NCBI GenBank assembly: GCA_965219535.1 | Contig: CBDCNV010000002.1 | Coordinates: 2,220,001-2,252,000, forward strand | DNA length: 32,000 nucleotides | Reading direction: 5' to 3' | DNA from: Opitutales bacterium | GTDB lineage: Bacteria; Verrucomicrobiota; Verrucomicrobiia; Opitutales; PNEW01 | Shown here: positions 2,895-31,658 of the stretch, one piece after another | How positions within the stretch are numbered: position 1 is the stretch's first letter | Layout of the letters: every line of letters starts with the position of its first letter | The notes under the pieces: generated by a model | Seen by the model: only the letters and a program-made list of their open reading frames with translations | Told to the model about the DNA's origin: nothing | Database searches by the model: none | Made by a program: the position numbers and the translations under genes

Positions 2895-2925
2895 GAGTCA
2901 AAAGTCAAAGGTCGAAGGTCAAATG
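2895..2925 (+). repeat. GTCAAAAG-type octamer array (family C), copy 1
   Basis: GAGTCAAAAGTCAAAGGTCGAAGGTCAAATG begins 16 nt after the methyltransferase stop. It is nearly identical to 24151..24174. Confidence 0.7.
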
Positions 2926-2990: not shown

Positions 2991-3084
2991 GGACGCGCTC
3001 CGTCGCGTCCGCTTCATTTGCAGTCCCTAGCACGCTTCTTCAATTACTACATTTTCAACGCGGTAGGGACACCGCGTTCCACCT
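2991..3084. repeat. REP/BIME-like hairpin cluster (family B), copy 1
   Basis: It has three parts. GGACGCG-CTCCGT-CGCGTCC (2991..3010) is a perfect 7 bp stem. GTCCCTAGCACGC (3023..3035) follows. AACGCGGT-AGGGAC-ACCGCGTT (3057..3078) plus CCACC completes it. The same arrangement occurs at 7149..7222. Confidence 0.75.
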
Positions 3085-15867: not shown

Positions 15868-15896
15868 CGTCTTCAACATTTTGACCTTTTGACTCA
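15868..15896 (-). repeat. GTCAAAAG-type octamer array (family C), copy 2
   Basis: On the minus strand it reads TGAGTCAAAAGGTCAAAATGTTGAAGACG, starting at the aldolase stop codon. The tail GTTGAAGACG matches 24304..24315 and 27098..27107. Confidence 0.7.
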
Positions 15897-16811: not shown

Positions 16812-16904
16812 AAAGGGGTGATGTCGATCTTTTTGTGTCTTTCGAGTTAGCACTTCGATCGCTAATTTCTAAATTATAAGCAAAAAGATCGACATCACCC
16901 CTTT
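16812..16904. promoter_or_regulatory. Perfect 24 bp inverted repeat with a 45 bp spacer in the divergent aldolase/deacetylase intergenic region
   Basis: AAAGGGGTGATGTCGATCTTTTTG (16812..16835) is the exact reverse complement of CAAAAAGATCGACATCACCCCTTT (16881..16904). Confidence 0.6.
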
Positions 16905-16924
16905 TGTTTAACCTTCATACAACT

Positions 16925-17686
16925 ATGAATAAAGACCTTCACCCCATCCCCGACGGACTGATTGTTCTTGTATTCGATGATGCCGTAAAATCCCATATTA
17001 CCTTTGTCGCGCCGCTGCTCAAAAGCTACGGCTTTAATGCCACTTTTTATATTTCCGAGGGCTTGGGCTTTCTGAAAAATAAAGAACGCTATATGACTTG
17101 GGAAGAGGTTCGGGAGCTGCATGAAGCGGGTTTTGAAATCGGAAATCATACCGGCCAGCACAAAGCCGTGAGTAAGCAGTCACGTGAGGAATTGATCGCT
17201 GATATCGAGAAGATTGATAGCCGATGCGAAGAATATGGCATTCCCGTCCCTGTAACATTTTGTTATCCTGGAGGACACCATTGCCCGGAGACCGTAGCGG
17301 TTCTCGAAGAGAGACAATTCCTTTTCGCAAAACGAAGTTTTGAGATGGAACCCTCTTGGTCAGAGGATGTTGACGGAAACGGGGGGCTAGGCTCTGCTTA
17401 TGATCCCACACTTCACCCTCCCTTACTCATCCCAACGACCGGAATGTCAGGACCCAACTGGCCATTTGAAGATTTTATCCGTGCGGTAGAGCTGGCCAGG
17501 GATGGGAAAATCACGGTATTTACTTTCCATGGCGTGCCGGATCTGGATCACCACTTTGTAAACACGGATCCGGATAAGTTTAAAACTTATATGGAATACT
17601 TACACGAGCATAACTGTACCGTTATTGCCGTCCGTGATTTGACTAAATTTGTAGACCCTTCGACTGGGCGAATCAGTGAACAGTAA
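16925..17686 (+). CDS. Polysaccharide deacetylase (carbohydrate esterase family 4-like)
   Basis: LVFDDAVKSH (Asp-Asp motif), GNHTGQH (H-x-x-x-H type metal motif) and MTWEEVRELHEAGFEIG. The track ORF starts at TTG 16904 inside the inverted repeat, so ATG 16925 (MNKDLHP) is more plausible. Confidence 0.75.
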   Translation: MNKDLHPIPDGLIVLVFDDAVKSHITFVAPLLKSYGFNATFYISEGLGFLKNKERYMTWEEVRELHEAGFEIGNHTGQHKAVSKQSREELIADIEKIDSRCEEYGIPVPVTFCYPGGHHCPETVAVLEERQFLFAKRSFEMEPSWSEDVDGNGGLGSAYDPTLHPPLLIPTTGMSGPNWPFEDFIRAVELARDGKITVFTFHGVPDLDHHFVNTDPDKFKTYMEYLHEHNCTVIAVRDLTKFVDPSTGRISEQ

Positions 17687-17708
17687 ACGGTAAACAGTGA
17701 ACAGTAAA
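17674..17708 (+). repeat. CAGTGAA-type heptamer array (family D), copy 1
   Basis: Five units: CAGTGAA CAGTAAA CGGTAAA CAGTGAA CAGTAAA. The deacetylase stop codon (17684..17686) lies inside unit 2. Confidence 0.8.
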
Positions 17709-17747
17709 TAATCCTTCTGGATCTTAACACGCGTTGGCGATTTTTCA

Positions 17748-17780
17748 TTTTGACTTTTTGACCTTTTGACTTTTTGACTC
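17748..17780 (-). repeat. GTCAAAAG-type octamer array (family C), copy 3 (reverse orientation)
   Basis: The plus strand reads CATTTTGACTTTTTGACCTTTTGACTTTTTGACTCAAT and ends 6 nt before the ATG at 17786. Confidence 0.75.
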
Positions 17781-17785
17781 AATAA

Positions 17786-18604
17786 ATGACTGAAGAACAG
17801 AAGTTCTTTTTTGATCTCCGCGGGTGGATACTATTGCCAGCCGTGTTATCACCAGCCGATATTGATGAGATGAAAAAGGAGGTGTATGATGGCGCGAAGA
17901 ATAGCTATGAAGGGTCACTTCAGAAGCTGCTCGACCATCCGGCCATCGTGGGTATTCTGACCGAGCTTCTCGCGGAGCCCTCTTTTGTTTCGGACGATTA
18001 CTACAGCTTCCGTTGTGAAGGTTCTTTTACGACAGTCCGTCCTTCCGGATGGACTTTAACCGAGAATGCAAAAGTAAAAGGCGGTACCGCTACACCCCAT
18101 GTCGTGCGTCCTCCACAGCAGGCTAACGCCATGCGATACCAGGTAGAAGGAAACAAGATTTTTGCAGGATTGACCCGTGTCGTCTGGGAGCTTGAAGAGG
18201 TGAAGGCGGGACAGGGGGGTACTACTTTTCTCAGCGGATCACACAAAGCGCATTTCAACTATGGAGGACCCGACCCCTATGCGCCCAATGTCAGTGACTC
18301 ACCCTGGGAACAAAGCATTCGTGAGGCGATGGACGAATACAGCTGTCCAGCTGGTTCTGCCATCGTATTCACGGAAAGTCTCTTACATGCAGCCCATGAT
18401 TGGACCAATCCCGATAACCCCCGGTGCGCGGTGTTCAATTGCTACAACTCTCTATGGGCTCAATGGCACCTGCTCAACCTGGACAACGAGATAATAGAAA
18501 AAATGCCGGAAAAACGGCGCACCCTCTTTCGCGGTACCTGGGAATTAGGAGAGTTAAATGGTAGCCGCAATCACAGCTATGCGGAAAATAATAGAAGTCT
18601 TTAA
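17786..18604 (+). CDS. PhyH-like Fe(II)/2OG oxygenase family protein (divergent)
   Basis: 272 aa. It shows a PhyH-type N-terminus (FFFDLRGWILLPAVLSPADIDEM), GGTTFLSGSHK and LLHAAHDW. I could not locate a canonical HxD/E at the expected place; the sequence there reads TPHVVRP. Confidence 0.6.
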   Translation: MTEEQKFFFDLRGWILLPAVLSPADIDEMKKEVYDGAKNSYEGSLQKLLDHPAIVGILTELLAEPSFVSDDYYSFRCEGSFTTVRPSGWTLTENAKVKGGTATPHVVRPPQQANAMRYQVEGNKIFAGLTRVVWELEEVKAGQGGTTFLSGSHKAHFNYGGPDPYAPNVSDSPWEQSIREAMDEYSCPAGSAIVFTESLLHAAHDWTNPDNPRCAVFNCYNSLWAQWHLLNLDNEIIEKMPEKRRTLFRGTWELGELNGSRNHSYAENNRSL

Positions 18605-18630
18605 AACGCGATAGTGTATCAGCGCGTTTT
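18603..18630 (+). terminator. Intrinsic terminator after the 17786..18604 gene
   Basis: AAAACGCG-(12 nt loop)-CGCGTTTT overlaps the stop codon, giving an A-tract/T-tract flanked GC stem. Confidence 0.55.
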
Positions 18631-18721
18631 AGGTTAGAAAAGGTTCACGGTTCAGAGTTGAGTTGAATATTTTTTAAAATAAATATTTTAAATCCCTCCT
18701 ACCTTTGCTTGTAATAAAAAA

Positions 18722-20005
18722 ATGCGAATAACAAAGTTTGAAACGGTGCGTGTCGGCGAGCAGCCTCATATCATTTGGGTTCGGGTTCACACCGATACTG
18801 GCTTGATCGGCCTAGGCGAAAGCTTTTATGCAGCAAGCACCATTGAAAGCGCAGTTCACGACCACTTTGGTTGCATGCTCGTGGGCCGCGATCCGCTTGC
18901 CATAGAACGGCACTGGATGGATATGTTCAAACTGTCAGATCATGCCGGTTACGGCGGCGCTGAGATGCGGGCGATTTCGGCAATCGACATGGCCCTTTGG
19001 GATATCAAGGGGCAGCACGCCGGGGTGCCGATCTACGAGCTGTTGGGGGGTGGCGTCCGAAATAAAATTCGTGTCTATGCTACGGGCGGTCCTTACAATG
19101 GAGCGGGTGACCTGGCTAAAGAGCTCCTCAACGACGGTATCATCGCCATGAAGCATGGACCTACGATTACAATCGCAACCCCCACAGACGGCCAGCTTCT
19201 TCACCCGAAAGACCTGGACTTCGCCCTCAAGCCGATCCGCGAAATTCGCGATGCGGTCGGCGATGACATTATGATTGCCAATGACGGACACGGCAAATGG
19301 GCATTGCCACAGGCGATTCAGATTGCGGAGGCGATGGAGCCATACGACATCATGTGGCAGGAAGATCTGATGCCACTGATGAATCCCTCTGCCCTGCTGC
19401 GCCTGCAGGAAGCAACGTCAGCACCGGTCTGCATCTCGGAGCGCTTACTTAGCCGCTGGCAATTCCGGGAGTTCATTGAAAATGGTGCCGCCAGAATTGT
19501 CATGCCTGATCTGATCTGGACTGGCGGTATATCCGAAGTTTACAAGATTGCCGTGATGGCTTCCGCTCACCAGGTCCCGGTGGCACCTCATGATGCAACT
19601 GGGCCTGTGAATATCTTTGCCTGTGCCCAGATCTGCATGAGCATTCCAAATGCCATGATCATGGAACACGTTCGACCATTCTTCCAGGGTTGGTACAATG
19701 ACTTCGTTGAACCTAATCTGCCAATAGAACATGGCTGGCTTCATGCCCCCCAGGAACCGGGTATAGGCACCCGCCTTAAAGCGCAGGTGTTCGAGCGATC
19801 TGACGTCAGCGTAAAAGTGAGTGACGAGGACGTCCGAGTCGGCCTTCCAGATGAAAATTTTGCGTGCTACAGCGAAGACCAGCGCTTCAAGTCCGGTGCC
19901 TATACTACACCTGATGGGTGGACGGAAGAGATGGCTGCCGAGGTCCATGACATTTGGGCCTATCGAAAACAGCAGATTATTGAATCAGATAGTGATCAGT
20001 CATGA
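18722..20005 (+). CDS. Enolase-superfamily (mandelate racemase/muconate lactonizing enzyme family) dehydratase-like protein, paralog 1
   Basis: 427 aa. MRITKFETV...GLGES, AISAIDMALWDIKGQ..PIYELLGG, the metal-ligand-type positions IANDGHGKW, WQEDL and ISERL, and the His motif VAPHDATGP. Confidence 0.88.
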   Translation: MRITKFETVRVGEQPHIIWVRVHTDTGLIGLGESFYAASTIESAVHDHFGCMLVGRDPLAIERHWMDMFKLSDHAGYGGAEMRAISAIDMALWDIKGQHAGVPIYELLGGGVRNKIRVYATGGPYNGAGDLAKELLNDGIIAMKHGPTITIATPTDGQLLHPKDLDFALKPIREIRDAVGDDIMIANDGHGKWALPQAIQIAEAMEPYDIMWQEDLMPLMNPSALLRLQEATSAPVCISERLLSRWQFREFIENGAARIVMPDLIWTGGISEVYKIAVMASAHQVPVAPHDATGPVNIFACAQICMSIPNAMIMEHVRPFFQGWYNDFVEPNLPIEHGWLHAPQEPGIGTRLKAQVFERSDVSVKVSDEDVRVGLPDENFACYSEDQRFKSGAYTTPDGWTEEMAAEVHDIWAYRKQQIIESDSDQS

Positions 20006-21219
20006 AGATCACACAAATCAAAACCATCCGCGTAGCTCAGTTCCCCGATGTCATCTGGGTTGAGGTTTACACCGATGCCGGGATCGTTGGACTTGGCGAA
20101 ACCTGGTATGCCGCGACGACCGTCGAAGCAGCTATCCACGACTACTTCGGTCCTCTCCTTATCGACAAAGACCCTCACGAAGTCGAAGGCCACTGGCAAA
20201 CAATGTTTCGACTATCGGACCACGCGGGTTACGGCGGCGCAGAGCTGCGGGCGATATCAGCGCTCGATATCGCCCTGTGGGATATTAAAGGACAGGCACT
20301 GAAGCTGCCAATCTACGAGTTAATTGGTGGAGTCACTCGTCATCGGATTCGAGTTTACAACACCCTCGGTGTATATGGTGATATCAAAGACGGCTACGAT
20401 GTCTGGCGAGACCCGGTCGACGTCGCGAAGAGCCTGTTGGACGAGGGCATCAAAGGAATGAAGATGTCGCCGACCGATTTCATCGCTCGCTCATCAGAGG
20501 GTCAACTCCTGTTCAAGAAAGACCTCGATCGTGCGCTGAAGCCGATTCGAGATATCAGAGATGCACTGGGGATGGATATCCAGATTGCCAACGACGGGCA
20601 TGGTAAATGGAACCTGCCCAACGCGATTCGAATCGTGAGGGACATGGAACCGCTCAAGCCAATGTGGCACGAGGAGCTAATTTCGCCGTTGAACGAGGAC
20701 GCGCATCTTCAACTTCAGCGAGAGACGATAACGCCAATAGCCGTGGCAGAACGTCTGATGACTAGTTACCAGCACCGCCGTTTCATTGAGTCAGGCGCGG
20801 CACGTATCGTCATGCCGGATTTGACGTGGACTGGCGGTATTTCTGAGACCCGAAAGATCGCAATACTGGCGTCGACGCACCAGTTGCCGATTGCCCCTCA
20901 CGATTGTGTCGGCCCGGTGAATATGTTTGCCTGCGCCCATATCTGCGTGTCACAGCCAAATGTGATGATCATGGAATACAACCGGGCGATGGCCCAAGGT
21001 TGGTACGGCGAATTCGTGGATCCGATGTTTAAGGTCATAGATGGTTTTCTTATGGCACCTGAAGGATCAGGACTAGGCACGCGACTCAGGCCCGAGATTA
21101 GTGAACGTCCTGATGCAACGGTGCGATTCAGTAATGAACCCCGAAATTCCTGGTTGACCTCGCCACAGCGCTACACCTATCCCCCTGAAGACTTACGCAC
21201 AGAATTCTCTCAAGGATAA
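20002..21219 (+). CDS. Enolase-superfamily dehydratase-like protein, paralog 2
   Basis: 405 aa and collinear with the upstream paralog: IANDGHGKW, WHEEL, VAERL, IAPHDCVGP. Its ATG (20002..20004) overlaps the upstream TGA (20003..20005). Confidence 0.88.
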   Translation: MKITQIKTIRVAQFPDVIWVEVYTDAGIVGLGETWYAATTVEAAIHDYFGPLLIDKDPHEVEGHWQTMFRLSDHAGYGGAELRAISALDIALWDIKGQALKLPIYELIGGVTRHRIRVYNTLGVYGDIKDGYDVWRDPVDVAKSLLDEGIKGMKMSPTDFIARSSEGQLLFKKDLDRALKPIRDIRDALGMDIQIANDGHGKWNLPNAIRIVRDMEPLKPMWHEELISPLNEDAHLQLQRETITPIAVAERLMTSYQHRRFIESGAARIVMPDLTWTGGISETRKIAILASTHQLPIAPHDCVGPVNMFACAHICVSQPNVMIMEYNRAMAQGWYGEFVDPMFKVIDGFLMAPEGSGLGTRLRPEISERPDATVRFSNEPRNSWLTSPQRYTYPPEDLRTEFSQG

Positions 21220-21399
21220 ATAGGGCTCTACCTGTAGTGTTTATATACAAAAGCAGGATAAGATTTTCCCTTTACTAACTTAAAATTTTTATTTTTGAGT
21301 ATATCAAATTGATAATTGTACCGAGGACGAAGTCCGACATCTTCCATATCGACATTTGATTGACTCTCCCCTTATTCGAATAAATTAGAAGATTGTGCA

Positions 21400-22233
21400 A
21401 TGAGCATTTTAAGCAAAGATGATCGATCGTTTTGGGACGAGAACGGTTATGTTATCATTCACGACGCCGTTTCTCCAGAAAATATTAAAGCTACCTATGA
21501 TGAAGTTTGGAATTTTTTGGATATGCAACCCGACGACCGGGAGAGCTGGTATCCGGACCCGCCGCGGCTGGGCCTCGGAGTGAAGATGCATCATCACCAG
21601 GTTTTGTGGAACAACCGTCAGCACCCCCGCGTGCACCAGGCCTTTGCGGAAATCTGGGGAACGGAGAAGTTGTGGGTAAGTTTTGACCAGTGCAGCATGA
21701 GCCCCCCGCTCCGCCCGCATTTGAATGACGGCGGGAAATTACACTGGGATACCCCTTTAGAACCACCTATTCCGTTTTGCTGTCAAGGTGTGCTTTACCT
21801 GACAGACACTGAAGCGGATAGGGGAGCGTTCACCTGTGTGCCGGGGTTCCATCAAAAACTCGAAAGCTGGTTGGAGTCCTTGCCACCGGAGGCCGATCCC
21901 CGAAAGCAGGACCTGATGCGCCTCGGGGCCATACCTGTTCCCGGTAAAGCTGGTGACTTCATCATCTGGCACCATTTACTCCCTCATGGGGCAGGTGTGA
22001 ATACGGCGGACCAACCTCGGGTCGTGCAGTACATCTCCATGTTCCCAGCCCAGGAAGTGGATGAAGATTTTGTAAATTACCGCATTGACGCATGGAAAAA
22101 TCGTCTTGCAGGTGGAGGTCATTCCGGCACGAGGGTTGAGTTGGAAAAAGGAAAAGAATATGAAAATGGTCAGACCGCGGAATTGACCCCCTTAGGACGA
22201 AAATTGCTGGGTCTAGATTCTTGGGAGCGCTAA
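21400..22233 (+). CDS. PhyH-family Fe(II)/2OG dioxygenase, group I paralog 1
   Basis: 277 aa. FWDENGYVIIHDAVSPENI N-terminus, LHWD (HxD), CVPGFHQK and LPHGAG (distal His). Confidence 0.82.
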   Translation: MSILSKDDRSFWDENGYVIIHDAVSPENIKATYDEVWNFLDMQPDDRESWYPDPPRLGLGVKMHHHQVLWNNRQHPRVHQAFAEIWGTEKLWVSFDQCSMSPPLRPHLNDGGKLHWDTPLEPPIPFCCQGVLYLTDTEADRGAFTCVPGFHQKLESWLESLPPEADPRKQDLMRLGAIPVPGKAGDFIIWHHLLPHGAGVNTADQPRVVQYISMFPAQEVDEDFVNYRIDAWKNRLAGGGHSGTRVELEKGKEYENGQTAELTPLGRKLLGLDSWER

Positions 22234-22234
22234 T

Positions 22235-22334
22235 GCGCGTCAAAAAGTCAAAAGGTTGATGGCGGGGGAGAATCAGTGAACAGTGTATCGAGTGTATAGC
22301 CCGACATCTTCCACGGTAAACAGTGAACAGTGCT
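22235..22334 (+). repeat. Family C octamers followed by a family D heptamer array interrupted by a 28 bp insert
   Basis: GCGCGTCAAAAAGTCAAAAGG (22235..22255) comes first. Then CAGTGAA CAGTG, an insert at 22286..22313 containing CCGACATCTTCCA, and CGGTAAA CAGTGAA CAGTGCT. Confidence 0.75.
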
Positions 22335-22355
22335 GCCGCTTGTATTAAATTTTAA

Positions 22356-23090
22356 GGGTCATGCCTAGAATAGACACATATCAGATGTGTAAGCTATTCT
22401 AGACAAATGAGAAATAAGTATGTACATCGTTCAAAAATTTCTGAGGCCAAATTTCGGCAGTTAGTAAAGTGTTTTAGCTTGGATATGGAAGCGTTGAAGA
22501 TAGCCCAATTGACAGGATTGAATCGTAACACGGTCAACCGTTATTTGCGCTTGTTGCGGGAGCGTTTGTTGCAGCAATGTGCGCAGGCCTCGCCTTTTAG
22601 GGGGTCGGTGGAAATGGATGAGTCCTACTTTGGAGGCAAAAGAATTCCAGGGCAAAGAGGTCGGGGTGCATTCAAGAAAGTGCCCGTCTTCGGGTTGCTC
22701 AAGCGTAATGGGAAAGTCTATACCCAGGTTGTACGCAATGTCTCCAGAGCCGCTCTGCATGCGGTGATCCAAGGGAGAGTTACTTTTGACAGTGTGCTTT
22801 ATTCTGACGGGTGGCGTGCTTACAACGGCCTCGTGGATCTGGGCTATAAGAAGCATTACCGTGTCAATCACAACGACAACGAGTTTGCCCAGGGACACTC
22901 CCACATTAACGGGATTGAATCTTTTTGGGCTTTTGCTAAACTTCGATTGGCTAAGTTCAAAGGTCTTTCTCGTAGGACCTTCCAACTGCACCTCAAAGAA
23001 ACTGAATATCGCTTTAACCATCGTCATCAAAACCTCCATCGTAACATCCTTAATATGTGCTTAAGATACCCTCTGTTCTAGGCATGACCC
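22356..23090 (+). mobile_element. IS1595-family insertion sequence, IS1016 group-like, apparently intact
   Basis: 735 bp. Perfect 15 bp terminal inverted repeats are GGGTCATGCCTAGAA (22356..22370) and TTCTAGGCATGACCC (23076..23090). An 8 bp direct duplication AATTTTAA flanks it (22348..22355 and 23091..23098). It holds a single transposase ORF. Confidence 0.9.
22407..23081 (+). CDS. ISXO2-like (DDE_Tnp_IS1595) transposase
   Basis: 224 aa. VEMDESYFGGKR, LYSDGWRAYNGL and HINGIESFWAFAKLRLAKFKG are typical of IS1016/IS1595 transposases. Confidence 0.9.
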   Translation: MRNKYVHRSKISEAKFRQLVKCFSLDMEALKIAQLTGLNRNTVNRYLRLLRERLLQQCAQASPFRGSVEMDESYFGGKRIPGQRGRGAFKKVPVFGLLKRNGKVYTQVVRNVSRAALHAVIQGRVTFDSVLYSDGWRAYNGLVDLGYKKHYRVNHNDNEFAQGHSHINGIESFWAFAKLRLAKFKGLSRRTFQLHLKETEYRFNHRHQNLHRNILNMCLRYPLF

Positions 23091-23113
23091 AATTTTAAAT
23101 AATGGTTCAAATA

Positions 23114-23140
23114 GGTGGAACGTGCTGTCCCCAGCGTGTT
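23114..23140 (+). repeat. REP-like hairpin (family B), copy 3, with a T-rich tail (possible terminator)
   Basis: In GGTGGAACGTGCTGTCCCCAGCGTGTT the stem AACGTGCT/AGCGTGTT pairs with G-U wobbles. It is followed by TTGAAGTTATA. Confidence 0.6.
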
Positions 23141-23172
23141 TTGAAGTTATATAGAATAAATAATCTCCCTAC

Positions 23173-23225
23173 TTGTCATTGCGAAGGAGGCGGTAGCCGC
23201 GTCGCGTTGCTTTTCGCAATGACAA
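23173..23225. repeat. MITE-like element, family A copy 4 (short deletion derivative)
   Basis: TTGTCATTGCGAAGGAGGCGGTAGCCGCGTCGCGTTGCTTTTCGCAATGACAA. The termini and first 20 nt match copy 3. Confidence 0.7.
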
Positions 23226-23271
23226 TTTAAATTGATGTATACTCAAACAAAGACTTAATGGTGAACTGAGA

Positions 23272-24150
23272 ATGAGTGTATTAACTAAAGAGGATAAAAC
23301 CTTCTGGGAGGAGAACGGTTACGTTGTCATTCACAACGCCGTTCCACCAGAAAAGGTCAAAGCTGCAAAGGCTGCGGTTTGGGATTTTTTGGAAATGCAG
23401 CCCGACAACCCGGATAGTTGGTATCCCGACCCGCCCCGGAAGGGGATCATGGCAGAGATGTATCAGCACCAGACATTGTGGGACAACCGCCAGTACCCCC
23501 GCGTTCATCAAGCCTTTGCTGAAATCTGGGGAACAGAGCGATTGTGGGTAAGTATTGACCGCGCAAGCATGAACCCACCGGACCGCACATCCCGAAAAGA
23601 AGCTGGGAAATTGAACGGTGATTCCCCTTCAAAACAGCCAATTCCGTTGCCGTTGCATTGGGATATCCCTGTAGAACCACCCATACCGTTATGTGTTCAG
23701 GGGGTGCTCTATCTGACGGACACAGCAGCGGATGGGGGAGCGTTCATCTGTGTGCCGGGGTTCCATCGAAAACTCGAAGCGTGGTTGGCGAATTTACCGG
23801 CGGATGCCGATCCGCGTAAGCAGGATTTGATGAGTCTGGGTGCAACACTGATTCCAGGTAAAGCCGGTGATCTCATCATCTGGCATAGTTCTCTGCCTCA
23901 CGGGGCAGGTCTTAATACAGGAAGGTATCCACGGGTCGTGCAGTACATCACCATGTTCCCGGTGCAGGAAAAAGACGAAAATATTCTAACTCGTCGCGTT
24001 AACGCATGGCGTAATAACCTGGCAGGTGTGATCGTCGAAAGCACCGGCTGGAAGGGGGAATTACGTAAGGAAAAGGAACATGAACTAGGGCAAACGGCGA
24101 AGCTGTCACCGTTAGGGCGAAAGCTGTTGGGGTTGGATTTGTGGGAATAA
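23272..24150 (+). CDS. PhyH-family Fe(II)/2OG dioxygenase, group I paralog 2
   Basis: 292 aa and collinear with 21400..22233 and 26167..27060: FWEENGYVVIHNAVPPEKV, LHWD, CVPGFHRK, LPHGAG. Confidence 0.82.
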   Translation: MSVLTKEDKTFWEENGYVVIHNAVPPEKVKAAKAAVWDFLEMQPDNPDSWYPDPPRKGIMAEMYQHQTLWDNRQYPRVHQAFAEIWGTERLWVSIDRASMNPPDRTSRKEAGKLNGDSPSKQPIPLPLHWDIPVEPPIPLCVQGVLYLTDTAADGGAFICVPGFHRKLEAWLANLPADADPRKQDLMSLGATLIPGKAGDLIIWHSSLPHGAGLNTGRYPRVVQYITMFPVQEKDENILTRRVNAWRNNLAGVIVESTGWKGELRKEKEHELGQTAKLSPLGRKLLGLDLWE

Positions 24151-24174
24151 GAGTCGAAAGTCGAAGGTCAAATG
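24151..24174 (+). repeat. Family C octamer array, copy 5a
   Basis: GAGTCGAAAGTCGAAGGTCAAATG lies directly after the stop codon. Confidence 0.7.
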
Positions 24175-24193
24175 TCTAAAGCGGGGGAAAAGT

Positions 24194-24228
24194 CAGTGAA
24201 CAGTGAACGGTAAACAGTGAACAGTGGG
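24194..24228 (+). repeat. Family D heptamer array, copy 3
   Basis: CAGTGAA CAGTGAA CGGTAAA CAGTGAA CAGTGGG. Confidence 0.8.
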
Positions 24229-24238
24229 GGAGCGCTAG

Positions 24239-24315
24239 CGCGCGTCAAAAAGTCAACAGCCGTCGCCAAGGCTATGGCCGTCAAGAAAGGTCAAAAAGTC
24301 AAAATGTTGAAGATG
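24239..24315 (+). repeat. Family C octamer array, copy 5b (degenerate, with an internal non-repeat stretch)
   Basis: GCGCGTCAAAAAGTCAAC ... GTCAAGAAAGGTCAAAAAGTCAAAATGTTGAAGATG. Confidence 0.65.
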
Positions 24316-24328
24316 AGAAATTGTCGTA

Positions 24329-24355
24329 GGTGGAACGCGGTGTCCCTACCGCGTT
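24329..24355 (+). repeat. REP-like hairpin (family B), copy 4
   Basis: GGTGGAACGCGGTGTCCCTACCGCGTT is the exact reverse complement of the distal arms at 3058..3084 and 7196..7222. Confidence 0.75.
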
Positions 24356-24398
24356 ATTCTTGACACTCTTTGTTTATTCTTAGTTAAGATCGCAACTG

Positions 24399-25241
24399 AT
24401 GTTAAGTCGCAGAAAAGGGTATTTGAAGCCGCGGACGGGCCGCGTTTCTAAAGCAAGTCGTCAGTTGGAGGACGAGGGTTACACACTTTTACGGAAGGTG
24501 CTTAGCGAAGAGGAAGTCAATAATCTCGCACAAGAAATCAATGAGGTTTATGATAAGCTGCCTCCCGATCGCCGGGCGAGCCTTGGTATTTTGGAAGAGG
24601 ATCAGGCTTTTCGTTATGAAATGTTCAATCGCAGTGCCTTGTGCCAGGAAGTTGTCGCCCATCCGAATATCTTGAAGACTATAGAACCTTTGTTGGGTGA
24701 AGATTGTCACGTTATTGCGAACACGAGCTGGCGCAATCCACCGGGTTCAGATCCGGAACATAAGGGCGGAGTCTGGCACATAGACGGCGGTCCACACATT
24801 CCACTTACCGATGATCAGGTATGGCCGAGCGACATCCCACATCCGATTTTTGCGATCGGTACACATATCTTTCTCAAGGATTGTCCAATGGAATGCGGCC
24901 CTACGGGCGTAATTCCCGGGAGCCATCTTTCAGGCAAACCGGCACCGCTCAATTATGATATGTCGGTGACTTGGAACAATGTTTCGGTAAAGCCCCTTCC
25001 TGCCAAAGCGGGCGATGTCGCGATGTTCGTCTCAGATATTTGGCACAGACGGATGCCAACATCCGAAGAAGATAGTGGCCGATTCTTTCTCCAGGTGCAT
25101 TACGCGCGAAGAGACATAGCGCAACGATTAAGACGGACAGCTGATGTCAATCAAGTCTCGCCACAAGCCATCGCGCGCATCAAAAGTGATCGTGAAAAAA
25201 CATTACTCGGGTTGCACCCCCCGAAATTCTATGACGGTTAA
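24399..25241 (+). CDS. PhyH-family Fe(II)/2OG dioxygenase (singleton type)
   Basis: 280 aa. LEDEGYTLLRKVLSEEEV N-terminus, WHIDGG (HxD), GVIPGSHLSG and IWHRRMP. Confidence 0.8.
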   Translation: MLSRRKGYLKPRTGRVSKASRQLEDEGYTLLRKVLSEEEVNNLAQEINEVYDKLPPDRRASLGILEEDQAFRYEMFNRSALCQEVVAHPNILKTIEPLLGEDCHVIANTSWRNPPGSDPEHKGGVWHIDGGPHIPLTDDQVWPSDIPHPIFAIGTHIFLKDCPMECGPTGVIPGSHLSGKPAPLNYDMSVTWNNVSVKPLPAKAGDVAMFVSDIWHRRMPTSEEDSGRFFLQVHYARRDIAQRLRRTADVNQVSPQAIARIKSDREKTLLGLHPPKFYDG

Positions 25242-25259
25242 AAGAATCAAATAAACCAA

Positions 25260-26015
25260 ATGGAATTAAAAGGAAAAGCAGCTTTAATCACGGGCGGCAA
25301 CAGCGGAATCGGTAAAGCTATCGCATACGCCTTGGCGGAAAGGGGAACTGAAGTACTGATAAGTGGCCGACGGGAAGACCAGAACCGCGCGGTTGCCGAA
25401 GCGATCAGTAAAAAAACCGGGACCCGGGTAGAGGCGGTAACCGCCGATGTCAGTCTTGAGGAAGATTGTGAAATGATGGTGCGCCGAACAATTGAACTGT
25501 TTGGAAAAATCGATATCTGTGTTAATAGCGCCGGGGTCTCAACGGGACCCCAATTTTCGGACCTTTCCACTGAAGTCTTTGATCAAGTACTGAAAACCAA
25601 TTTATACGGAGCGTTCTGGTGTTCACGAGCCGCATATAACGCGATGCGTAAGAATAAACTAAGTTCTCCGGATGATATTCGTGGTTATATCATAAACATA
25701 TCATCGGTTGTAGGACTGGAAGCTTACGCGCGAAGTGGGGCTGGGAGCGGCGTTTACAGCGCTTCCAAATTCGGCATGATGTCGCTCAACCAGGGCATGT
25801 CTGGTTCGGGGCAGAAGGAGTTGATAAAAGTTACCGCGATCTGCCCGGCAATGGTTGCTACGCCAATGACTGACGAATGGAGAAACAACAACAGTAAAGA
25901 AGGTGATGAATTTATTGAACCAGAAGATGTAGCAGAAACGGTCCTTTACCTCACACGCCTCTCACGTGCCGTCTGGCCCGTGCAGGAAGTTTTACCCCGA
26001 CGTGAAGTGGAGTAG
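25260..26015 (+). CDS. Short-chain dehydrogenase/reductase (SDR)
   Basis: 251 aa. Cofactor motif ITGGNSGIGKA, NSAG, catalytic-type NISS and YSASK (YxxxK). It starts 18 nt after the upstream dioxygenase stop. Confidence 0.88.
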   Translation: MELKGKAALITGGNSGIGKAIAYALAERGTEVLISGRREDQNRAVAEAISKKTGTRVEAVTADVSLEEDCEMMVRRTIELFGKIDICVNSAGVSTGPQFSDLSTEVFDQVLKTNLYGAFWCSRAAYNAMRKNKLSSPDDIRGYIINISSVVGLEAYARSGAGSGVYSASKFGMMSLNQGMSGSGQKELIKVTAICPAMVATPMTDEWRNNNSKEGDEFIEPEDVAETVLYLTRLSRAVWPVQEVLPRREVE

Positions 26016-26060
26016 AAGAGCTAAGCGATAATGCGTATATGCGTGAACGAGACAATTGAA

Positions 26061-26086
26061 GATTGCGGATATCGGATTGCGGATTT
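26061..26086 (+). repeat. GATTGCGGAT-word repeat (family F), left copy
   Basis: GATTGCGGATATCGGATTGCGGATTT. 23 of 25 positions match the reverse complement of 27266..27290. Confidence 0.7.
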
Positions 26087-26115
26087 ATCGTAATGAAATC
26101 AACTATCTTTACCTT

Positions 26116-26157
26116 GAACCCTGAACCCTGAACCCTGAACCCTGAACCCTGAACCCT
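26116..26157 (+). repeat. Perfect tandem heptamer (GAACCCT)x6
   Basis: Six exact GAACCCT units ending 9 nt upstream of the ATG at 26167. Confidence 0.95.
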
Positions 26158-26166
26158 GCAACGTGC

Positions 26167-27060
26167 ATGTCCGTATTAAGTAAAGAAGATAGAGCATTCT
26201 GGGACGAGAATGGTTACGTTATCATTCACGAAGCTGTCCCCCCGGAAAATATAAAAGCTGCATCAGATGCGATTTGGGATTTTTTGGAAATGCAACCCGA
26301 CGATGAGGAGAGTTGGTATCCCGATCCGCCCAGCAAAAGTATAGGGGTCAAACTGTATCATCACCAGGCTATATGGGACAATCGTCAGTGCCCTCGCGTA
26401 TATCAAGCCTTTGCAGAGATCTGGGGAACGGATCATTTGTGGGTTAGTTTTGACCAGGCCAGCATGAGCCCACCGGATCGTTCTCACCCAAAAGATTCTG
26501 GAAAACTGTTCAGTGAGAACTCTTCAAAACAACCCATTCCGATGCACTGGGATATCCCATTAGAACGACCATTGCCATTTGCTGTTCAAGGGGTGCTCTA
26601 TCTGAAAGACACAACAGCGGAAATGGGAGCGTTTACCTGTGTGCCTGGATTCCATCGCAAGACAGAAGCATGGTTAGAAAACTTACCTGCGGATGCCAAT
26701 CCGCGTAAGCAAAATCTCATGAACCTCGACGTAAAGCCGATTTCCGGTAAAGCTGGAGACCTCATCATTTGGCAAGGTGCACTGCCTCACGGTGCAGGTC
26801 AGAATATAGCGAGGCATCCCCGGGTTGTGCAGTATATTAGTATGTTCCCGGCAAAGGAAGAGGACGAAGAAACGCGAAATTATCGCATCGATTCATGGCG
26901 CAATAACCTGGTAGGTGGTGGGGCTTGGGGTGTGATGCACGAGTTACCTTTCAGCAAGAAAGTGGAGTTGCACAAGGAAAAGGAACATGCGATAGGTCAG
27001 AGAGCAGAGTTGACCCCCTTAGGCCGAAAACTGTTGGGATTGGATTCCTGGGAACGCTAA
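26167..27060 (+). CDS. PhyH-family Fe(II)/2OG dioxygenase, group I paralog 3
   Basis: 297 aa. FWDENGYVIIHEAVPPENI, MHWD, CVPGFHRK, LPHGAG, and the same C-terminal LTPLGRKLLGLDSWER as paralog 1. Confidence 0.82.
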   Translation: MSVLSKEDRAFWDENGYVIIHEAVPPENIKAASDAIWDFLEMQPDDEESWYPDPPSKSIGVKLYHHQAIWDNRQCPRVYQAFAEIWGTDHLWVSFDQASMSPPDRSHPKDSGKLFSENSSKQPIPMHWDIPLERPLPFAVQGVLYLKDTTAEMGAFTCVPGFHRKTEAWLENLPADANPRKQNLMNLDVKPISGKAGDLIIWQGALPHGAGQNIARHPRVVQYISMFPAKEEDEETRNYRIDSWRNNLVGGGAWGVMHELPFSKKVELHKEKEHAIGQRAELTPLGRKLLGLDSWER

Positions 27061-27108
27061 CGCGCGTCAAAAAGTCAAAAGGTCAAAAGGTCAAAAAGTT
27101 GAAGACGG
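27061..27108 (+). repeat. Family C octamer array, copy 6 (best preserved)
   Basis: CGCGCGTCAAAAAGTCAAAAGGTCAAAAGGTCAAAAAGTTGAAGACGG begins at the first base after the stop codon. Confidence 0.85.
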
Positions 27109-27133
27109 ACTCCTAAACTCAACATAACTTTTA

Positions 27134-27157
27134 AACGCGCTAGGGACAGCCCGCTCC
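27134..27157 (-). repeat. REP-like hairpin (family B), copy 5
   Basis: The minus strand reads GGAGCGGGCTGTCCCTAGCGCGTT, matching the proximal arm at 7151..7173. Confidence 0.7.
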
Positions 27158-27265
27158 GCAGTAAACTAGTTAGTATCAAAATTCTCTCTTGTGCCTTTTG
27201 TGGCTATCTTTTCTTTTACTCAGTTACCTCTGCGCCTCTGCGGTCCAATCTTCTTCCCCAATCAG

Positions 27266-27290
27266 AAATCCGCATTCCGACATCCGCAAT
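27266..27290 (-). repeat. Family F repeat, right copy (inverted)
   Basis: The reverse complement is ATTGCGGATGTCGGAATGCGGATTT. It sits 6 nt past the GH32-like gene stop. Confidence 0.7.
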
Positions 27291-27295
27291 TGTTA

Positions 27296-28750
27296 TCAGT
27301 CTACTTCTGGGGCCCAGATACGATTCTCTTTGGCTTCGAGGAAACCCTGGTTGGTGGGTTTGAGTTTCCAGATTTCCAGTTTTTTGATTCTTGTCGGGTT
27401 GTTGCCCCATATGCCGAAGAAGGTATACGCTTTTAGACTGTTACCTTCATCTTTGTAAGTCATATGGGCGGTCAATGCCGCCTGACGGCCGTTGATGAAG
27501 ACTTCCACCAGGTACTTATCGACGAAGATACGCAGGTCAAAATCTTCCCCATCCGGGAGATTGGCGACAGAAAACGGTGCCTCGGTTTCGCCGATGCATA
27601 CAGTACCTGTCTCGGGACGAATCAGAATAAGGAGGCCTTCACTGTTTTCGCCGGCGAACAACCGGAAGCCGAAACGCCTGCGGTCAGCCGCTGCTCTTTC
27701 CATGGAGACGCGCACCTCGAAAGCATCCGTCTCGATTTCGGCGATGGACAGCTCCTCTGACGAAATCACTTCGAGGTCGTTGAATATTTGTTCTTCGTGC
27801 CGAAGCGTCTCGAGCTCACGCAGTGGTTGAATATTCAGGCTTCCATCCTCGTGAAGACTCAGCTCACGTGGTAATGACTGGATCGACTTCAGGTTGATTT
27901 CCGGATCGAGGGTCGTAAGCCATGACCACATTACACGGCGACCATCTGCTGTGAGGACACTTTCCGGTGCAAAAAAGTCACGGTAGCAAGGCTCTGTGAG
28001 TGACTGACCGAGCCGTCTCCAATTCATACGTCCATGGGTGTGAGGAACGAACTGCTCGGCTTTGGTATCCCAGTCGCCGAGGTAGTAGCGGCAGCCGATC
28101 GTATGGCTGATACACAGCAGCATCCACTGGTTTTCAAACGGGTAGAAATGGGCGCACGAAAGATCTTCGCCGATCGCAACATCCGGCATGTCGTGCTTCA
28201 TGAATGGCCCGACATAAGTCCAGTTGATTAGATCAGTGGACTTGCACAGCGGAACATCGTCGGCAGCGGAATAGGCGTAATAAGTGTCGTCGATGCGAAA
28301 ACAGTCAGGATCGTGGGTTAAACCGATATCCTTTCCGTCGGGACCACCTTTCGGCAGTATCGGATAGGGTTTCTCCCATTCACTGAGCTGATTGTCCTTT
28401 GCGACCGCGATGTACGTTTGATTCGGTTCTGCCAAACCCGCGTAGATGGCCGCATGTTTTCCCTCCGCGGTAATGAATCCGGTGCCGCTGAACATGCCGG
28501 TAGCGGTAAAGGAAGGTTGCAGCTTGGTGGACTGCCATGTCCAGTGCAGCATGTCGGGACTGGTGACGTGGACAAAAGAGTAGGAAGTTTTATTCTGAAA
28601 AAGATGTCGCAGAATGTAGTGCAGGTGGTAGACACCGTCCAAGTAATAGGCGACGTTAGGATCGCCCGGTGCACTGTCACCACCTGGGTGCATCAAGTGG
28701 TAGTTGAGTGTCAAGTCGTCGGAAACGATTTCTTCATCAGTGTGTTTCAT
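27296..28750 (-). CDS. Glycoside hydrolase family 32-like protein (beta-propeller plus C-terminal beta-sandwich), cytoplasmic
   Basis: 484 aa. YHLMHPGGDSAPGDPNVAYYLDGVYHLHY resembles the GH32 WMNDPNG...G.YHLFYQ block. The C-terminal FDLRIFVDKYLVEVFINGRQAALT resembles the GH32 beta-sandwich signature. No signal peptide. Confidence 0.65.
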   Translation of the reverse strand: MKHTDEEIVSDDLTLNYHLMHPGGDSAPGDPNVAYYLDGVYHLHYILRHLFQNKTSYSFVHVTSPDMLHWTWQSTKLQPSFTATGMFSGTGFITAEGKHAAIYAGLAEPNQTYIAVAKDNQLSEWEKPYPILPKGGPDGKDIGLTHDPDCFRIDDTYYAYSAADDVPLCKSTDLINWTYVGPFMKHDMPDVAIGEDLSCAHFYPFENQWMLLCISHTIGCRYYLGDWDTKAEQFVPHTHGRMNWRRLGQSLTEPCYRDFFAPESVLTADGRRVMWSWLTTLDPEINLKSIQSLPRELSLHEDGSLNIQPLRELETLRHEEQIFNDLEVISSEELSIAEIETDAFEVRVSMERAAADRRRFGFRLFAGENSEGLLILIRPETGTVCIGETEAPFSVANLPDGEDFDLRIFVDKYLVEVFINGRQAALTAHMTYKDEGNSLKAYTFFGIWGNNPTRIKKLEIWKLKPTNQGFLEAKENRIWAPEVD

Positions 28751-28913
28751 TAGTGTGTCCTCTCAATTCTATTCATTATGGAAAATTCAATCTTTTCAAA
28801 AGGAGATGATAGGTTAAAATATTTCACAAGAAAATATTCGACCATATTCTATATCAATTACAATAAGATCGACATGGTTCCTTATGAATTTGCCTCCTTA
28901 GTTACCATTCGAT

Positions 28914-29753
28914 TTATTTTTTTATTAAAGAGGACAAATCATTTCCTTGTGGTCTGGAGTGACAGGTCCAATAATTATATCGATTCTTTCCTCTACATAG
29001 AATCGATTTTTCTGCATAATTTTTCTGCTTATTATCAATAACGTGGACTTCAGGAGGACAGTAGCGAATGGTGAGTCCGCATCGCCTGCGCATTGAATCA
29101 TTTGAGGTTGAACCGTGAACCATCATATCGGCATAAAGAGAAATTTCCCCCGCTTTTAAATTATTAAATACGGGTTTGCCATACCGTGTTACATTTGTGA
29201 TTTCCTGCTCTAATACTGCGGGTTTATCAGTTTTTTCCCAATTGAAATGCCCGAGCTTATGCGTGCCGGGAATAAACTGCATGGCCGCGTTATCAGGATC
29301 GGCATCGTCGATCGCAAGCCATACGGTAACGGTTCGCGATGGGCTTATCGGCCAATAGGATGCATCCTGATGCCAGGGAACTACCTTTTTGTCCTGCGGC
29401 AGTTTACAAAAATAGTGAGTCCCCCAGGCGATGATGTCGGGCCCGATCAGATCTTCCACGTAATCGAGTATTCTGGAGTCCGTTACTATATCCCAGATTT
29501 CTCCACAATGGACATGATAACCATTAATCGCATAGGCCAAATCGCCCTTGTGTTTCCCATTTAGGAGATTGAGCAAATGATCAAAGTAGTCCCGGTTCTT
29601 TATTACCTCCGCGTCAGAGAAAATTCTTAATGGTTTCAAATAACCATTTTTATTATAGAAGCTTATCTGCTCAACCGAAAGACTCTTAGGGTGGCCATTG
29701 ATCACCGGTTTAAATGACAGATCTTTTTTTTCTAAAACAGATTTGTTTTGCAC
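28914..29753 (-). CDS. PhyH-family Fe(II)/2OG dioxygenase (classical PWHQD type)
   Basis: 279 aa. FYNKNGYLKPLRIFSDAEV, PWHQDASYW (HxD), QFIPGTHKLG and MVHGSTSN. Confidence 0.85.
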   Translation of the reverse strand: MQNKSVLEKKDLSFKPVINGHPKSLSVEQISFYNKNGYLKPLRIFSDAEVIKNRDYFDHLLNLLNGKHKGDLAYAINGYHVHCGEIWDIVTDSRILDYVEDLIGPDIIAWGTHYFCKLPQDKKVVPWHQDASYWPISPSRTVTVWLAIDDADPDNAAMQFIPGTHKLGHFNWEKTDKPAVLEQEITNVTRYGKPVFNNLKAGEISLYADMMVHGSTSNDSMRRRCGLTIRYCPPEVHVIDNKQKNYAEKSILCRGKNRYNYWTCHSRPQGNDLSSLIKK

Positions 29754-29785
29754 AATTTAATTCAGTATCAAATATTAAATGATGG

Positions 29786-29806
29786 AGCTTTGAACATTTC
29801 AAAGCT
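29786..29806. promoter_or_regulatory. Palindrome in a divergent promoter region
   Basis: AGCTTTGAA-CAT-TTCAAAGCT has perfect 9 bp arms. It lies between the divergent dioxygenase genes starting at 29753 (minus) and 29872 (plus). Confidence 0.35.
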
Positions 29807-29871
29807 AAGTTGTATTTTAGACATTGCGCATTGGGCTTAGCAAAACATTTAATTTATAGAGGAATCGCTAA

Positions 29872-30645
29872 TTGAAACTCAAGGAATCAGAAGTTCAATC
29901 ATTTCAACAAGAGGGATACTTGAAGGTCCCTCATCGGGTAATCGAGGAAGAACACCTCCAACGTCTTGTCAGATCTTATGACGCGGTATTTAATGACCAT
30001 GAAGTAGGAGAGGGTGTACGCAACCTTTCGAAAGCGGAATCGACAACTGAAGAAACCGTGGAAACAGATGACGGGAAAATGTGGCAGGTAATGGGGATGT
30101 GGAAAAGAAGTGAGGATTTCCAGCAACTACTCTATCACAAACCGTTACTAGACATTGCTGAGAGTCTGATTGGTGGAAACATACAGTTATATCATGACCA
30201 GGCACTTTATAAGCCGGCAAACAACGGCGGGCCTATTCCGTGGCATCAAGACAATGCCTATTGGCGTTGTCAGCCGGCAGGCCTGGTCAGTATCTGGATT
30301 GCTCTTGACGATGCCGATGAAGAAAACGGTTGTATGAATGTCATCCCCGGCAGTCACGCGAGAGGTGCGTTGGAGCATTCGCGGGCTAAGACGGGCGATG
30401 GGAATACATCAGCTATATTAATGACATCCCAGGTAGATGATAGCAAAGCAGTTCCCATACCTCTGACCGCGGGCCATGCCATGGTTCATCACTGTTTAAT
30501 GTTCCATACCACGCGACCAAACTATTCCAACCGTGACCGGCGGGCAATGGTCATTCACTATATGCCAGTGGGCACCCGCAATGGTGAAGGGGAGTTGTTG
30601 GAAGAGGAAGACTATCCGCTATTGAGAGGAAAGAACGTTAATTAG
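29872..30645 (+). CDS. PhyH-family Fe(II)/2OG dioxygenase (classical PWHQD type)
   Basis: 257 aa with a TTG start in the ORF track. FQQEGYLKVPHRVIEEEHL, PWHQDNAYW, MNVIPGSHARG and LMFHTTRPN. Confidence 0.82.
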   Translation: MKLKESEVQSFQQEGYLKVPHRVIEEEHLQRLVRSYDAVFNDHEVGEGVRNLSKAESTTEETVETDDGKMWQVMGMWKRSEDFQQLLYHKPLLDIAESLIGGNIQLYHDQALYKPANNGGPIPWHQDNAYWRCQPAGLVSIWIALDDADEENGCMNVIPGSHARGALEHSRAKTGDGNTSAILMTSQVDDSKAVPIPLTAGHAMVHHCLMFHTTRPNYSNRDRRAMVIHYMPVGTRNGEGELLEEEDYPLLRGKNVN

Positions 30646-30881
30646 ACAAGTAAGCAGGTCCTTCGGCGACGCTCAGGGCAGGCAGGTGTCGGGTGTCGGA
30701 AGAGATAGTCGCTATCACGTTTATGATCAATCTGGATTCTGCAATTGATTCGGCCACCGCTTAGAGCTAATGGAGATATATGATGGACAATGAAAACGAC
30801 GGTCAATAGACTGGATTGGAACTGGATGTTTATTTGAATTCCATGCACGCTTAATTTTACACGAAAGATAAAAATGGAAGA

Positions 30882-31658
30882 TTGCCGATGCTAACCAAAC
30901 AGCAAGTTACATTTTTTAATACCTTTGGTTTTATCATCCTCAGAAAAGTGTTTTCGGAAAATGAACTCGCTATTATTAATGATGAGTTTAATCGAGGGGC
31001 TATAGATAAGCGGCAAATCCACCCGACGCTTACTAACTGGTCTAACCTTGGCACAGAAGCATCTTTCTTAAGCGAGTTGCCGGAAGATCCGCGAATATGT
31101 GTAACGGCAGAACAGTTATTTGGAGAAGACGCGGTAGCGATGTCATCGAACAGTAGCCGCCGCGTGGGCGACACACACTGGCATACTGATCGGCCTGACC
31201 CCCATTCTTACGGAATGAAATTTTCCGCTTATCTGCAGCCTATCGATGCCAGTAATGGCGCGCTTCGTGTCATACCGGGATCACACAAGAAACCCTATAT
31301 AGATAATCTGAAAAAAATGGAATTGAATACTCCGGATATAAGTGTGCCCGCGTATACCTGTGAGTCATATCCAGGAGACATTGTCCTTTTCAACTTAGCT
31401 ATATGGCATTCCAGTTGGGGTGGATCCTCTGACCGCCGCGTGTGTACCATGGACTTTTACAAAAATCCTAAAACACCTGAAGAAGAAGAGGCTATTTATG
31501 ATCAGGTGAAAATCGATAAAGAAGTTTACGCAAAACTCCGTACTAGCGGGACGAATTTCCATCCCCAATGGGTAGCCAATTCTAAAAACAGTTCCCGACG
31601 TCAGCGCTGGATCGATTGGTTGCGGAAATATGAGTATGTCGAATCGAATGCGACCTGA
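30882..31658 (+). CDS. PhyH-family Fe(II)/2OG dioxygenase (group III)
   Basis: 258 aa. FFNTFGFIILRKVFSENEL, HWHTDR (HxD), LRVIPGSHKKP and IWHSSWGG. Confidence 0.8.
   Translation: MPMLTKQQVTFFNTFGFIILRKVFSENELAIINDEFNRGAIDKRQIHPTLTNWSNLGTEASFLSELPEDPRICVTAEQLFGEDAVAMSSNSSRRVGDTHWHTDRPDPHSYGMKFSAYLQPIDASNGALRVIPGSHKKPYIDNLKKMELNTPDISVPAYTCESYPGDIVLFNLAIWHSSWGGSSDRRVCTMDFYKNPKTPEEEEAIYDQVKIDKEVYAKLRTSGTNFHPQWVANSKNSSRRQRWIDWLRKYEYVESNAT

Follow-up and report, generated by a model that had tools for sequence, protein, structure and literature searches.

Repeat arrays in the window and their neighbouring genes

The 32,000-nt stretch of Opitutales DNA analysed here (the window) contains seven to eight intergenic tandem arrays of the type (GTCAAAAR)n or (GTCRAAR)n, a count far above chance, and ORF and Pfam calls confirmed that the genes next to them encode a methyltransferase, an HpcH-type aldolase (an exact-protein look-up of which gave no match) and several PhyH-family dioxygenase paralogs. 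The PhyH-family genes are unusually expanded, with at least eight paralogs in the window (17786–31658) and five more just beyond it; the region L111 1–10000 holds seven, two of which are the window's own. They are interleaved with genes of the MR_MLE enolase superfamily and with SDR and GH32 genes. Elsewhere in the window, a family-5 solute-binding protein gene (7352–9414) is present as two abutting ORFs (7352–8119 and 8119–9414), of which one matches the first part of the Pfam model and the other the second, and is probably frameshifted or a pseudogene.

The arrays were placed by Tandem Repeats Finder and by direct reading of the sequence, and all seven of those located were intergenic. The word GTCAAAAG is found nine times in the window against 1.4 expected, a number reached by none of 100 shuffles, and the double unit, with up to two mismatches allowed, 12 times against 0.36 expected. 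Every position given in the preliminary description for the repeated A-rich arrays was confirmed, exactly or to within a few bases. A same-strand stop codon lies 0–17 nt ahead of six arrays (139 nt in the case of one remnant), and one array lies 7 nt before a start codon, on the opposite strand.

The array after PhyH paralog 3 consists of four octamer units, GTCAAAAA GTCAAAAG GTCAAAAG GTCAAAAA (27066..27097, + strand), and begins 5 nt past the TAA of that gene (27058–27060). It had been thought to start at 27061, the first base after the stop codon, but 27061–27065 (CGCGC) belongs to a separate module, GAACGCTAACGCGC (27052..27065, + strand), which supplies the last two codons of paralog 3 (Glu-Arg) together with its stop; the same module is found at 22225–22238 and 24230–24243, and beside arrays in the related genome OY829953.1. 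On its inner side the array is followed by GTTGAAGACG (27098..27107, + strand), the recurrent degenerate unit that closes many of the arrays, as the earlier mention of a frequent terminal tail had suggested. No terminator-like site (a GC-rich hairpin with a U-tract) was found in 26950–27400, the spacer between paralog 3 and the GH32 gene. The array after paralog 1 (22239..22264, + strand), which comprises two units and the tail GTTGATGGCG and likewise starts 5 nt past the stop codon, is homologous to that at 27066, and its ortholog in the OY829953.1 region L044 has three units. Paralog 2 is followed, 2 nt past its stop, by four units of a 7-nt variant, AGTCGAA twice, GGTCAAA and TGTCTAA (24152..24181, + strand), and further on by an octamer array (24244..24315, + strand) that is split by a nested 22-nt element (24258–24279) and ends in the tail GTTGAAGATG; directly ahead of this second array lies a remnant gene end, GGGGGAGCGCTAG (24227–24243).

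The remaining three arrays flank other genes. A two-unit array with a GTTGAAGACG tail (15868..15893, − strand) adjoins the TGA (15894–15896) of the HpcH-type aldolase gene directly, and a four-unit 7-nt variant, AGTCAAA twice, GGTCGAA and GGTCAAA (2896..2923, + strand), begins 17 nt past the methyltransferase stop. The unit period is thus 7 nt (GTCRAAR) in the arrays at 2896 and 24152, and the octamer originally assigned to all of them applies to most. The only array next to a start codon is a four-unit one at 17747..17779 (− strand), antisense to the adjacent gene and 7 nt before its ATG at 17786, which bears out the lone opposite-orientation copy noted before; its mRNA strand reads (YTTTTGAC)4. 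Single arrays are without self-complementarity and essentially unstructured as RNA on either strand (0 to −2.2 kcal/mol), in agreement with the previous view that they are not terminator hairpins.

Several of these arrays are not independent. The 3′ ends of paralogs 1 and 3 align past the stop codon into the array (...TGGGARCGCTAAYGCGCGTCAAAAAGTCAAAAGG), and the arrays after these two genes and at 24244–24315 are homologous copies rather than separate events. In the orthologous region L044, which is collinear with window positions 20866–26870 at approximately 92–93% identity, a complete extra PhyH paralog is followed by a four-unit array, and approximately 2.6 kb of this DNA is absent from the window; the array at 24244–24315 is the 3′ flank of that paralog, the gene itself having been deleted in the window. 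Judged by these alignments, three of the five cases described as sense-orientation copies in the 3′ flank of a gene are one ancestral array that was duplicated together with the tandem PhyH genes, so that the positions stand but their independence does not. Independent targeting of stop codons within the window was accordingly rejected, since paralogs 1 and 3 and the remnant at 24227 remain homologous across the stop and into the array, as was the insertion of an 85-nt element at the end of paralog 2, where L044 shows instead a 2.6-kb indel with an extra paralog.

In this indel between close relatives, window positions 24203–24352 correspond to L044 2616–5309, which includes two extra genes, one of them the PhyH paralog; all that is left of the lost PhyH gene in the window is its final 17 nt and its array, and the left breakpoint falls within a CAGTGAA array. 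With the nested element at 24258–24279, this breakpoint adjoining the arrays supports the earlier suggestion that they are sites of rearrangement. The extra PhyH paralog (L044 4262–5230) is without its usual stop and reads through the octamer array, which is stop-free in every sense frame, so that the read-through adds approximately 22 Lys-rich residues. Between PhyH paralogs 1 and 2 the window has an IS1595-family transposase gene (22407–23081); the orthologous OY829953.1 site (L044) is without it, and the insertion is therefore recent.

Position and orientation in related Opitutales genomes

Species-representative genomes were scanned with three perfect units, which gave at least 29 loci in the Opitutales MAG OY829953.1 (4.49 Mb) and at least five in a second Opitutales MAG (CBDANS...). 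From OY829953.1 we analysed 232 kb in 8-kb blocks, each chosen because it contains an array, with genes called as our own longest ORFs, a procedure that misses ORFs of less than 100 amino acids, e.g. the HU gene. The sample contains no tRNA genes. Of its 82 arrays (81 of them non-edge), 76 were intergenic. Among these 76, 56 have their 5′ (GTC) end no more than 25 nt from a gene edge and none has its 3′ end so close, whereas 2000 trials of random placement and orientation in the same intergenic regions gave 11.6 on average and 25 at most. The end nearer to a gene is the 5′ end in 70 of the 76 (sign test, approximately 3e-15). The rule can also be put in terms of the intergenic region: a '+' array always occupies its left edge and a '−' array its right edge, and the order '− +' was never seen in the sample. 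The second Opitutales genome agrees with this polarity in eight of ten arrays and the window in six of seven. The non-random placement, the tie to gene ends and the orientation rule that had been noticed in the window are supported.

The adjacent edge is a start codon for 41 arrays and a stop codon for 35, with approximately 190 edges of each kind available. Start-side arrays are antisense and their distances peak at 6–10 nt before the ATG, and stop-side arrays are in sense at distances of −1 to 10 nt. Mapping the motif against stop codons and strand, as the preliminary description had proposed, thus upheld an orientation bias and gave no stop-codon bias across the 232 kb, and the specificity for stop codons and 3′-UTRs put forward there did not hold. 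The 6:1 ratio of stops to starts in the window reflects a small sample that includes three paralogous copies; the after-stop pattern of the window is one half of the edge rule, inflated by the PhyH array duplication. At the HU gene the array is placed after a canonical terminator and not after the stop codon, indicating that what is abutted is the functional unit.

Other short-period repeats in the same DNA behave differently. Among 83 non-octamer arrays of 5–10-nt units, 67 were intergenic and 25 of these were edge-associated against a null of 17.5, a weak excess, and so the polarity rule is specific to the GTCAAAAR family. The same octamer occurs in Bacteroidota and other phyla, where it is intergenic and not polar, and the six viral contigs with the motif are unrelated low-GC contigs. 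The arrays are thus shown to be copies of a discrete tandem-repeat element, intergenic and direction-sensitive, that belongs to an Opitutales (Verrucomicrobiota) lineage. Its place is the outer edge of the intergenic region, where the GTC end lies next to the adjoining gene, after a stop or before a start.

Array structure, conservation and possible explanations

The perfect arrays comprise two (20 arrays), three (21), four (34) or five (one) units, i.e. a mode of four and a ceiling of five with no slippage-like tail, and the 7-nt variants of the window likewise have four. Of 159 pairs of adjacent units, 39 have the same eighth base, where shuffling gives 60.5 (minimum of 40 in 5000 shuffles); this indicates that A and G alternate, with an effective period of 16 bp. 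On the outer side 38 of the 76 arrays are flanked by TA, and on the inner side 72 are flanked by G. The inner end is sharp: one partly array-like unit follows, with no gradual decay of similarity beyond it. We considered a 'conveyor-belt' growth at the gene-proximal end and rejected it, since decayed units do not form a gradient.

Fifteen inverted pairs bracket whole intergenic regions with their GTC ends outward, with potential stems of 16–32 bp (MFE −23 to −113 kcal/mol); four of the 15 enclose cores of 69–70 nt that are 26–36% identical (OY829953.1 L010, L018 and L021; merged M1 5533, 7595 and 12407; M2 12824). TA is found on both sides in four of 14 pairs, as expected from independence. 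Two arrays per intergenic region are mildly over chance (OR 2.5, p=0.05) and two across a gene are not (OR 1.5, p=0.44), and 53 of the 67 array-bearing regions have a single array. As the cores of the pairs are unrelated and co-occurrence is mild, or absent across genes, the arrays are mostly per-edge events. The lack of association across genes also led us to discard a model in which the gene is a unit with arrays at both ends.

The arrays were compared at several evolutionary distances. In three strains 99.97% identical with the window the octamer arrays are identical, and between the window and OY829953.1 one array has two units in the former and three in the latter. Between two Opitutales species with a coding identity of 70–85%, the array is kept at four orthologous edges in intergenic DNA that is otherwise unalignable, with unit numbers of 3 v 5, 2 v 4 and 4 v 4, and at one kept edge the units are of 8 nt in one species and 7 nt in the other. 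In two kept arrays all 49 core positions are identical and four of seven eighth positions are different. In a further intergenic region, each of the two edges bears one unit in one species and four units in the other. At about half of the orthologous edges the array is lost, decayed or replaced by a different repeat family, and any constraint is consequently weak. Homologs of the GH32 protein with 74–77% identity are found in genomes of 60–63% GC that are free of arrays, which makes the octamer family lineage-specific.

The edge rule is indifferent to which way genes are transcribed, the unit core is conserved although its eighth base drifts, and array size is capped. We infer from this that the arrays are most likely read at the level of DNA, and tentatively propose that each may be a phased and oriented binding platform of double-stranded DNA. 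In this proposal a putative oligomeric protein would read the arrays as duplex DNA and the bound platform would mark or insulate the edges of gene units, while the arrays would persist through gain and loss of units in situ and through hitch-hiking with duplicated genes. Ribbon–helix–helix repressors bind operators (MetJ metboxes, omega heptads) of two to five contiguous 7–8-bp units, which act as an oriented, co-operative protein-binding platform. These operators are the nearest working analogy for the putative platform, which would occupy perhaps hundreds of sites here, at gene ends as well as starts. Strict helical phasing is awkward, since 7-bp and 8-bp variants occupy equivalent positions. 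Taken whole, with the edge element and its putative function as a DNA-binding platform, we give this explanation an even chance. The platform function by itself is possible rather than probable, and roughly on a par with an origin as neutral or selfish DNA that selection has filtered.

According to the latter alternative, which we hold to be possible without favouring it, the arrays are a by-product, slippage-prone intergenic simple-sequence DNA whose position is simply where selection tolerates it, the tolerated zone extending to the coding sequence minus the few bases needed ahead of a start codon. The variation in unit number between species and the loss or replacement of arrays agree with it, as does the fact that the only polymorphic site among the 99.97%-identical strains is itself an array, (ACCCTGA)n. 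The genome is packed with other arrays of 6–9-nt units (156 in 264 kb) and the octamer recurs without polarity in unrelated phyla. A non-functional origin is further favoured by analogous families for which no function has been found, related repeats having been known for 10–35 years without a demonstrated one. However, such an origin leaves the strict polarity (56 v 0 of 76) unaccounted for, and equally the four-unit ceiling and the alternation of A and G, given that slippage by single units should make neighbouring units alike. Nor does it account for the sharp inner end, for the persistence of perfect cores amid intergenic DNA saturated with changes, or for the weak edge association of the other arrays in the same genome.

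An action at the level of RNA is less probable, and we consider it unlikely. Here (GUCAAAAR)n after stops would be a 3′-UTR element for protein binding or stability, and (YUUUUGAC)n before starts would be a U-rich leader free of structure, to which ribosomal protein S1 or a cold-shock protein would bind and which would permit Shine–Dalgarno-independent initiation. Both strands are indeed essentially unstructured, a Shine–Dalgarno-like motif precedes only 22 of 130 genes in the genome analysed here, start-side arrays end tightly at 6–10 nt from the ATG, and terminators, where present, are usually downstream of the array, so that stop-side arrays would be transcribed; the same roles have been proposed for TAACTGA arrays (PMC4679880). 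As starts are as frequent as stops, however, the transcribed strand is GUCAAAAR at half of the sites and YUUUUGAC at the rest. Two functions would therefore be needed for complementary RNAs that obey one symmetry rule at the DNA level, with starts and stops used equally (41:35), and no single RNA-level role, such as 3′-UTR stability or protein binding, can account for an edge rule that is symmetric in this way. The array beyond the terminator of the HU gene, the absence of any Rfam 15 match at gathering score in the window, and a C:G ratio of 1:1.5 to 1:2 per unit (one C and one or two G), unlike a Rho loading site, also speak against an RNA element.

The least probable of the alternatives, which we consider very doubtful, is a MITE- or Correia-like element that fills the intergenic region and has the arrays as its terminal inverted repeats or stem arms, single arrays being decayed halves: the 15 inverted pairs with GTC ends always outward and foldable into 16–32-bp stems, the TA at half of the outer ends and the mild excess of same-region pairs would suit it, but the cores of the pairs are unrelated (26–36% identity for the four compared), TA on both sides is no more frequent than under independence, most arrays are single, no gene is enclosed by facing 3′ ends (0/76 within 25 nt), there is no autonomous parent with such ends in the sample, and orthologous sites differ as one v four units rather than as empty v filled.

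Three narrower candidates were also set aside. Replacement of terminators by arrays does not fit, since canonical terminators are rare everywhere and, where present, are usually downstream of arrays. A promoter function (−35 TTGAC) was rejected on inspection of the sequences, in which the ATG is too close for a −10 element and a transcription start to fit in. A three-frame TGA stop barrier toward the gene holds for YTTTTGAC, but is not general because the GGGAATC and GGGGAYT families described below are without it.

Known repeat systems and other repeats near the arrays

A literature search found no paper on the GTCAAAAR octamer or on such repeats in Opitutales, and to this extent the element is undescribed, as first supposed; its kind, however, has been described (PMC4692102 and PMC4679880). 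Rehm et al. (2015, PLoS One, PMC4692102) reported heptamer arrays of GGGAATC in Xanthomonas and of GGGGA(C/T)T in Nostoc/Anabaena, which lie upstream of ORFs on the non-coding strand and downstream on the coding strand, where they may overlap stop codons. Four units were preferred, which the authors ascribed to G-quadruplex formation, and no function was found. The Opitutales arrays resemble these in being intergenic short-unit tandems with a preference for four units and with inverted pairs, in having the 5′ end near the ORF in any orientation (averages of 28 v 160 nt there and medians of 9.5 v 150 nt here), and in lying between the same genes in related species with varying length. They differ in the unit, which is 8 nt (with a 7-nt variant), A-rich and without G-runs, in the host phylum, here Verrucomicrobiota, and in showing no depletion in divergent intergenic regions, of which 13 of 32 have arrays. 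We are confident that they belong to the polar intergenic short-unit repeat arrays of this type. As the unit has no G-run, GTCAAAAR cannot form a G-quadruplex, and G-tracts are probably not essential to the kind.

MacGregor (2015, PMC4679880) described TAACTGA direct repeats in marine Beggiatoaceae, some cyanobacteria and Bacteroidetes; in BOGUAY, 147 of 170 arrays point toward start codons and 12 toward stop codons. These also consist of two to six tandem units, are nearly all intergenic, change by unit-sized indel steps between strains and end a few nucleotides from start codons in Shine–Dalgarno-poor regions, matching the start-side half of the pattern seen here. The unit is another one, and the bias to starts there contrasts with the equal use of starts and stops in the Opitutales sample (41 v 35).

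The Opitutales family repeats the two oddest published properties of such arrays, namely a gene-abutting 5′ end regardless of gene direction and a preference for four units, with a unit that is unable to form a G-quadruplex. No other structural explanation has so far been put forward, and with its removal a cause that does not depend on sequence is indicated, be it a binding platform or the way in which the arrays arise. It is conceivable, although improbable, that Xanthomonas GGGAATC, Nostoc GGGGAYT and Opitutales GTCAAAAR form a phylum-spanning class with one shared mechanism, an oriented protein–DNA or single-strand-binding boundary complex that would mark or insulate gene-unit edges and would work without a G-quadruplex and with a lineage-specific unit and cognate binder. 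In several bacterial genomes, few unexplained features are as abundant as short tandem arrays of 7–8-nt units. Those described here overlap stop codons, can be read as coding and sit at called start codons, and gene calling is affected as a result; they also adjoin an indel between near-identical genomes.

The STRR heptamers of heterocystous cyanobacteria (Mazel et al. 1990) reportedly form many dispersed intergenic tandem arrays, which fall into several unit families in each genome and are not known to have a function. Their organisms and units differ from those of the GTCAAAAR arrays, and identity with cyanobacterial STRRs, which heptamer arrays such as CAGTGAA and ACCCTGA had suggested, was rejected because no cyanobacteria were among the main matches listed and the window is 92–93% identical with an Opitutales MAG. 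REP and REPIN sequences have an imperfect-palindrome hairpin as their unit, whereas the Opitutales arrays are without self-complementarity, although REP-like hairpins lie beside some of them. One such 27-nt hairpin, GGTGGAACGCGGTGTCCCTACCGCGTT, has three identical copies in the window at 3057–3083 (−), 7196–7222 (−) and 24329–24355 (+) and a diverged copy at 27134–27157. Related copies in OY829953.1 display compensatory stem changes and inverted doublets (REPIN-like, L018 about 803–1090), and some of the REP-like hairpins follow an array and GTTGAAGACG at a fixed spacing. The 22-nt element AGCCGTCGCCAAGGCTATGGCC is nested in octamer arrays at window 24258–24279, L056 about 6179, L073 about 6518 and L018 about 850, as if these arrays were its preferred insertion target.

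Other short-unit arrays also lie close to genes in the window. The polysaccharide deacetylase ORF (16904–17686) has its TAA stop inside a CAGTRAA heptamer array (17674–17708), and the same spacer has an octamer array at its other edge. Heptamers of the family TGCGGAT/GATTGCG (27262–27295, − strand) lie in sense 7 nt after the GH32 stop codon and are also present upstream of paralog 3 (26061–26085). Finally, the (ACCCTGA)n array at 26109–26158 ends 8 nt before the ATG at 26167, and over 10–15 kb three 99.97%-identical strains differ at its upstream edge alone.
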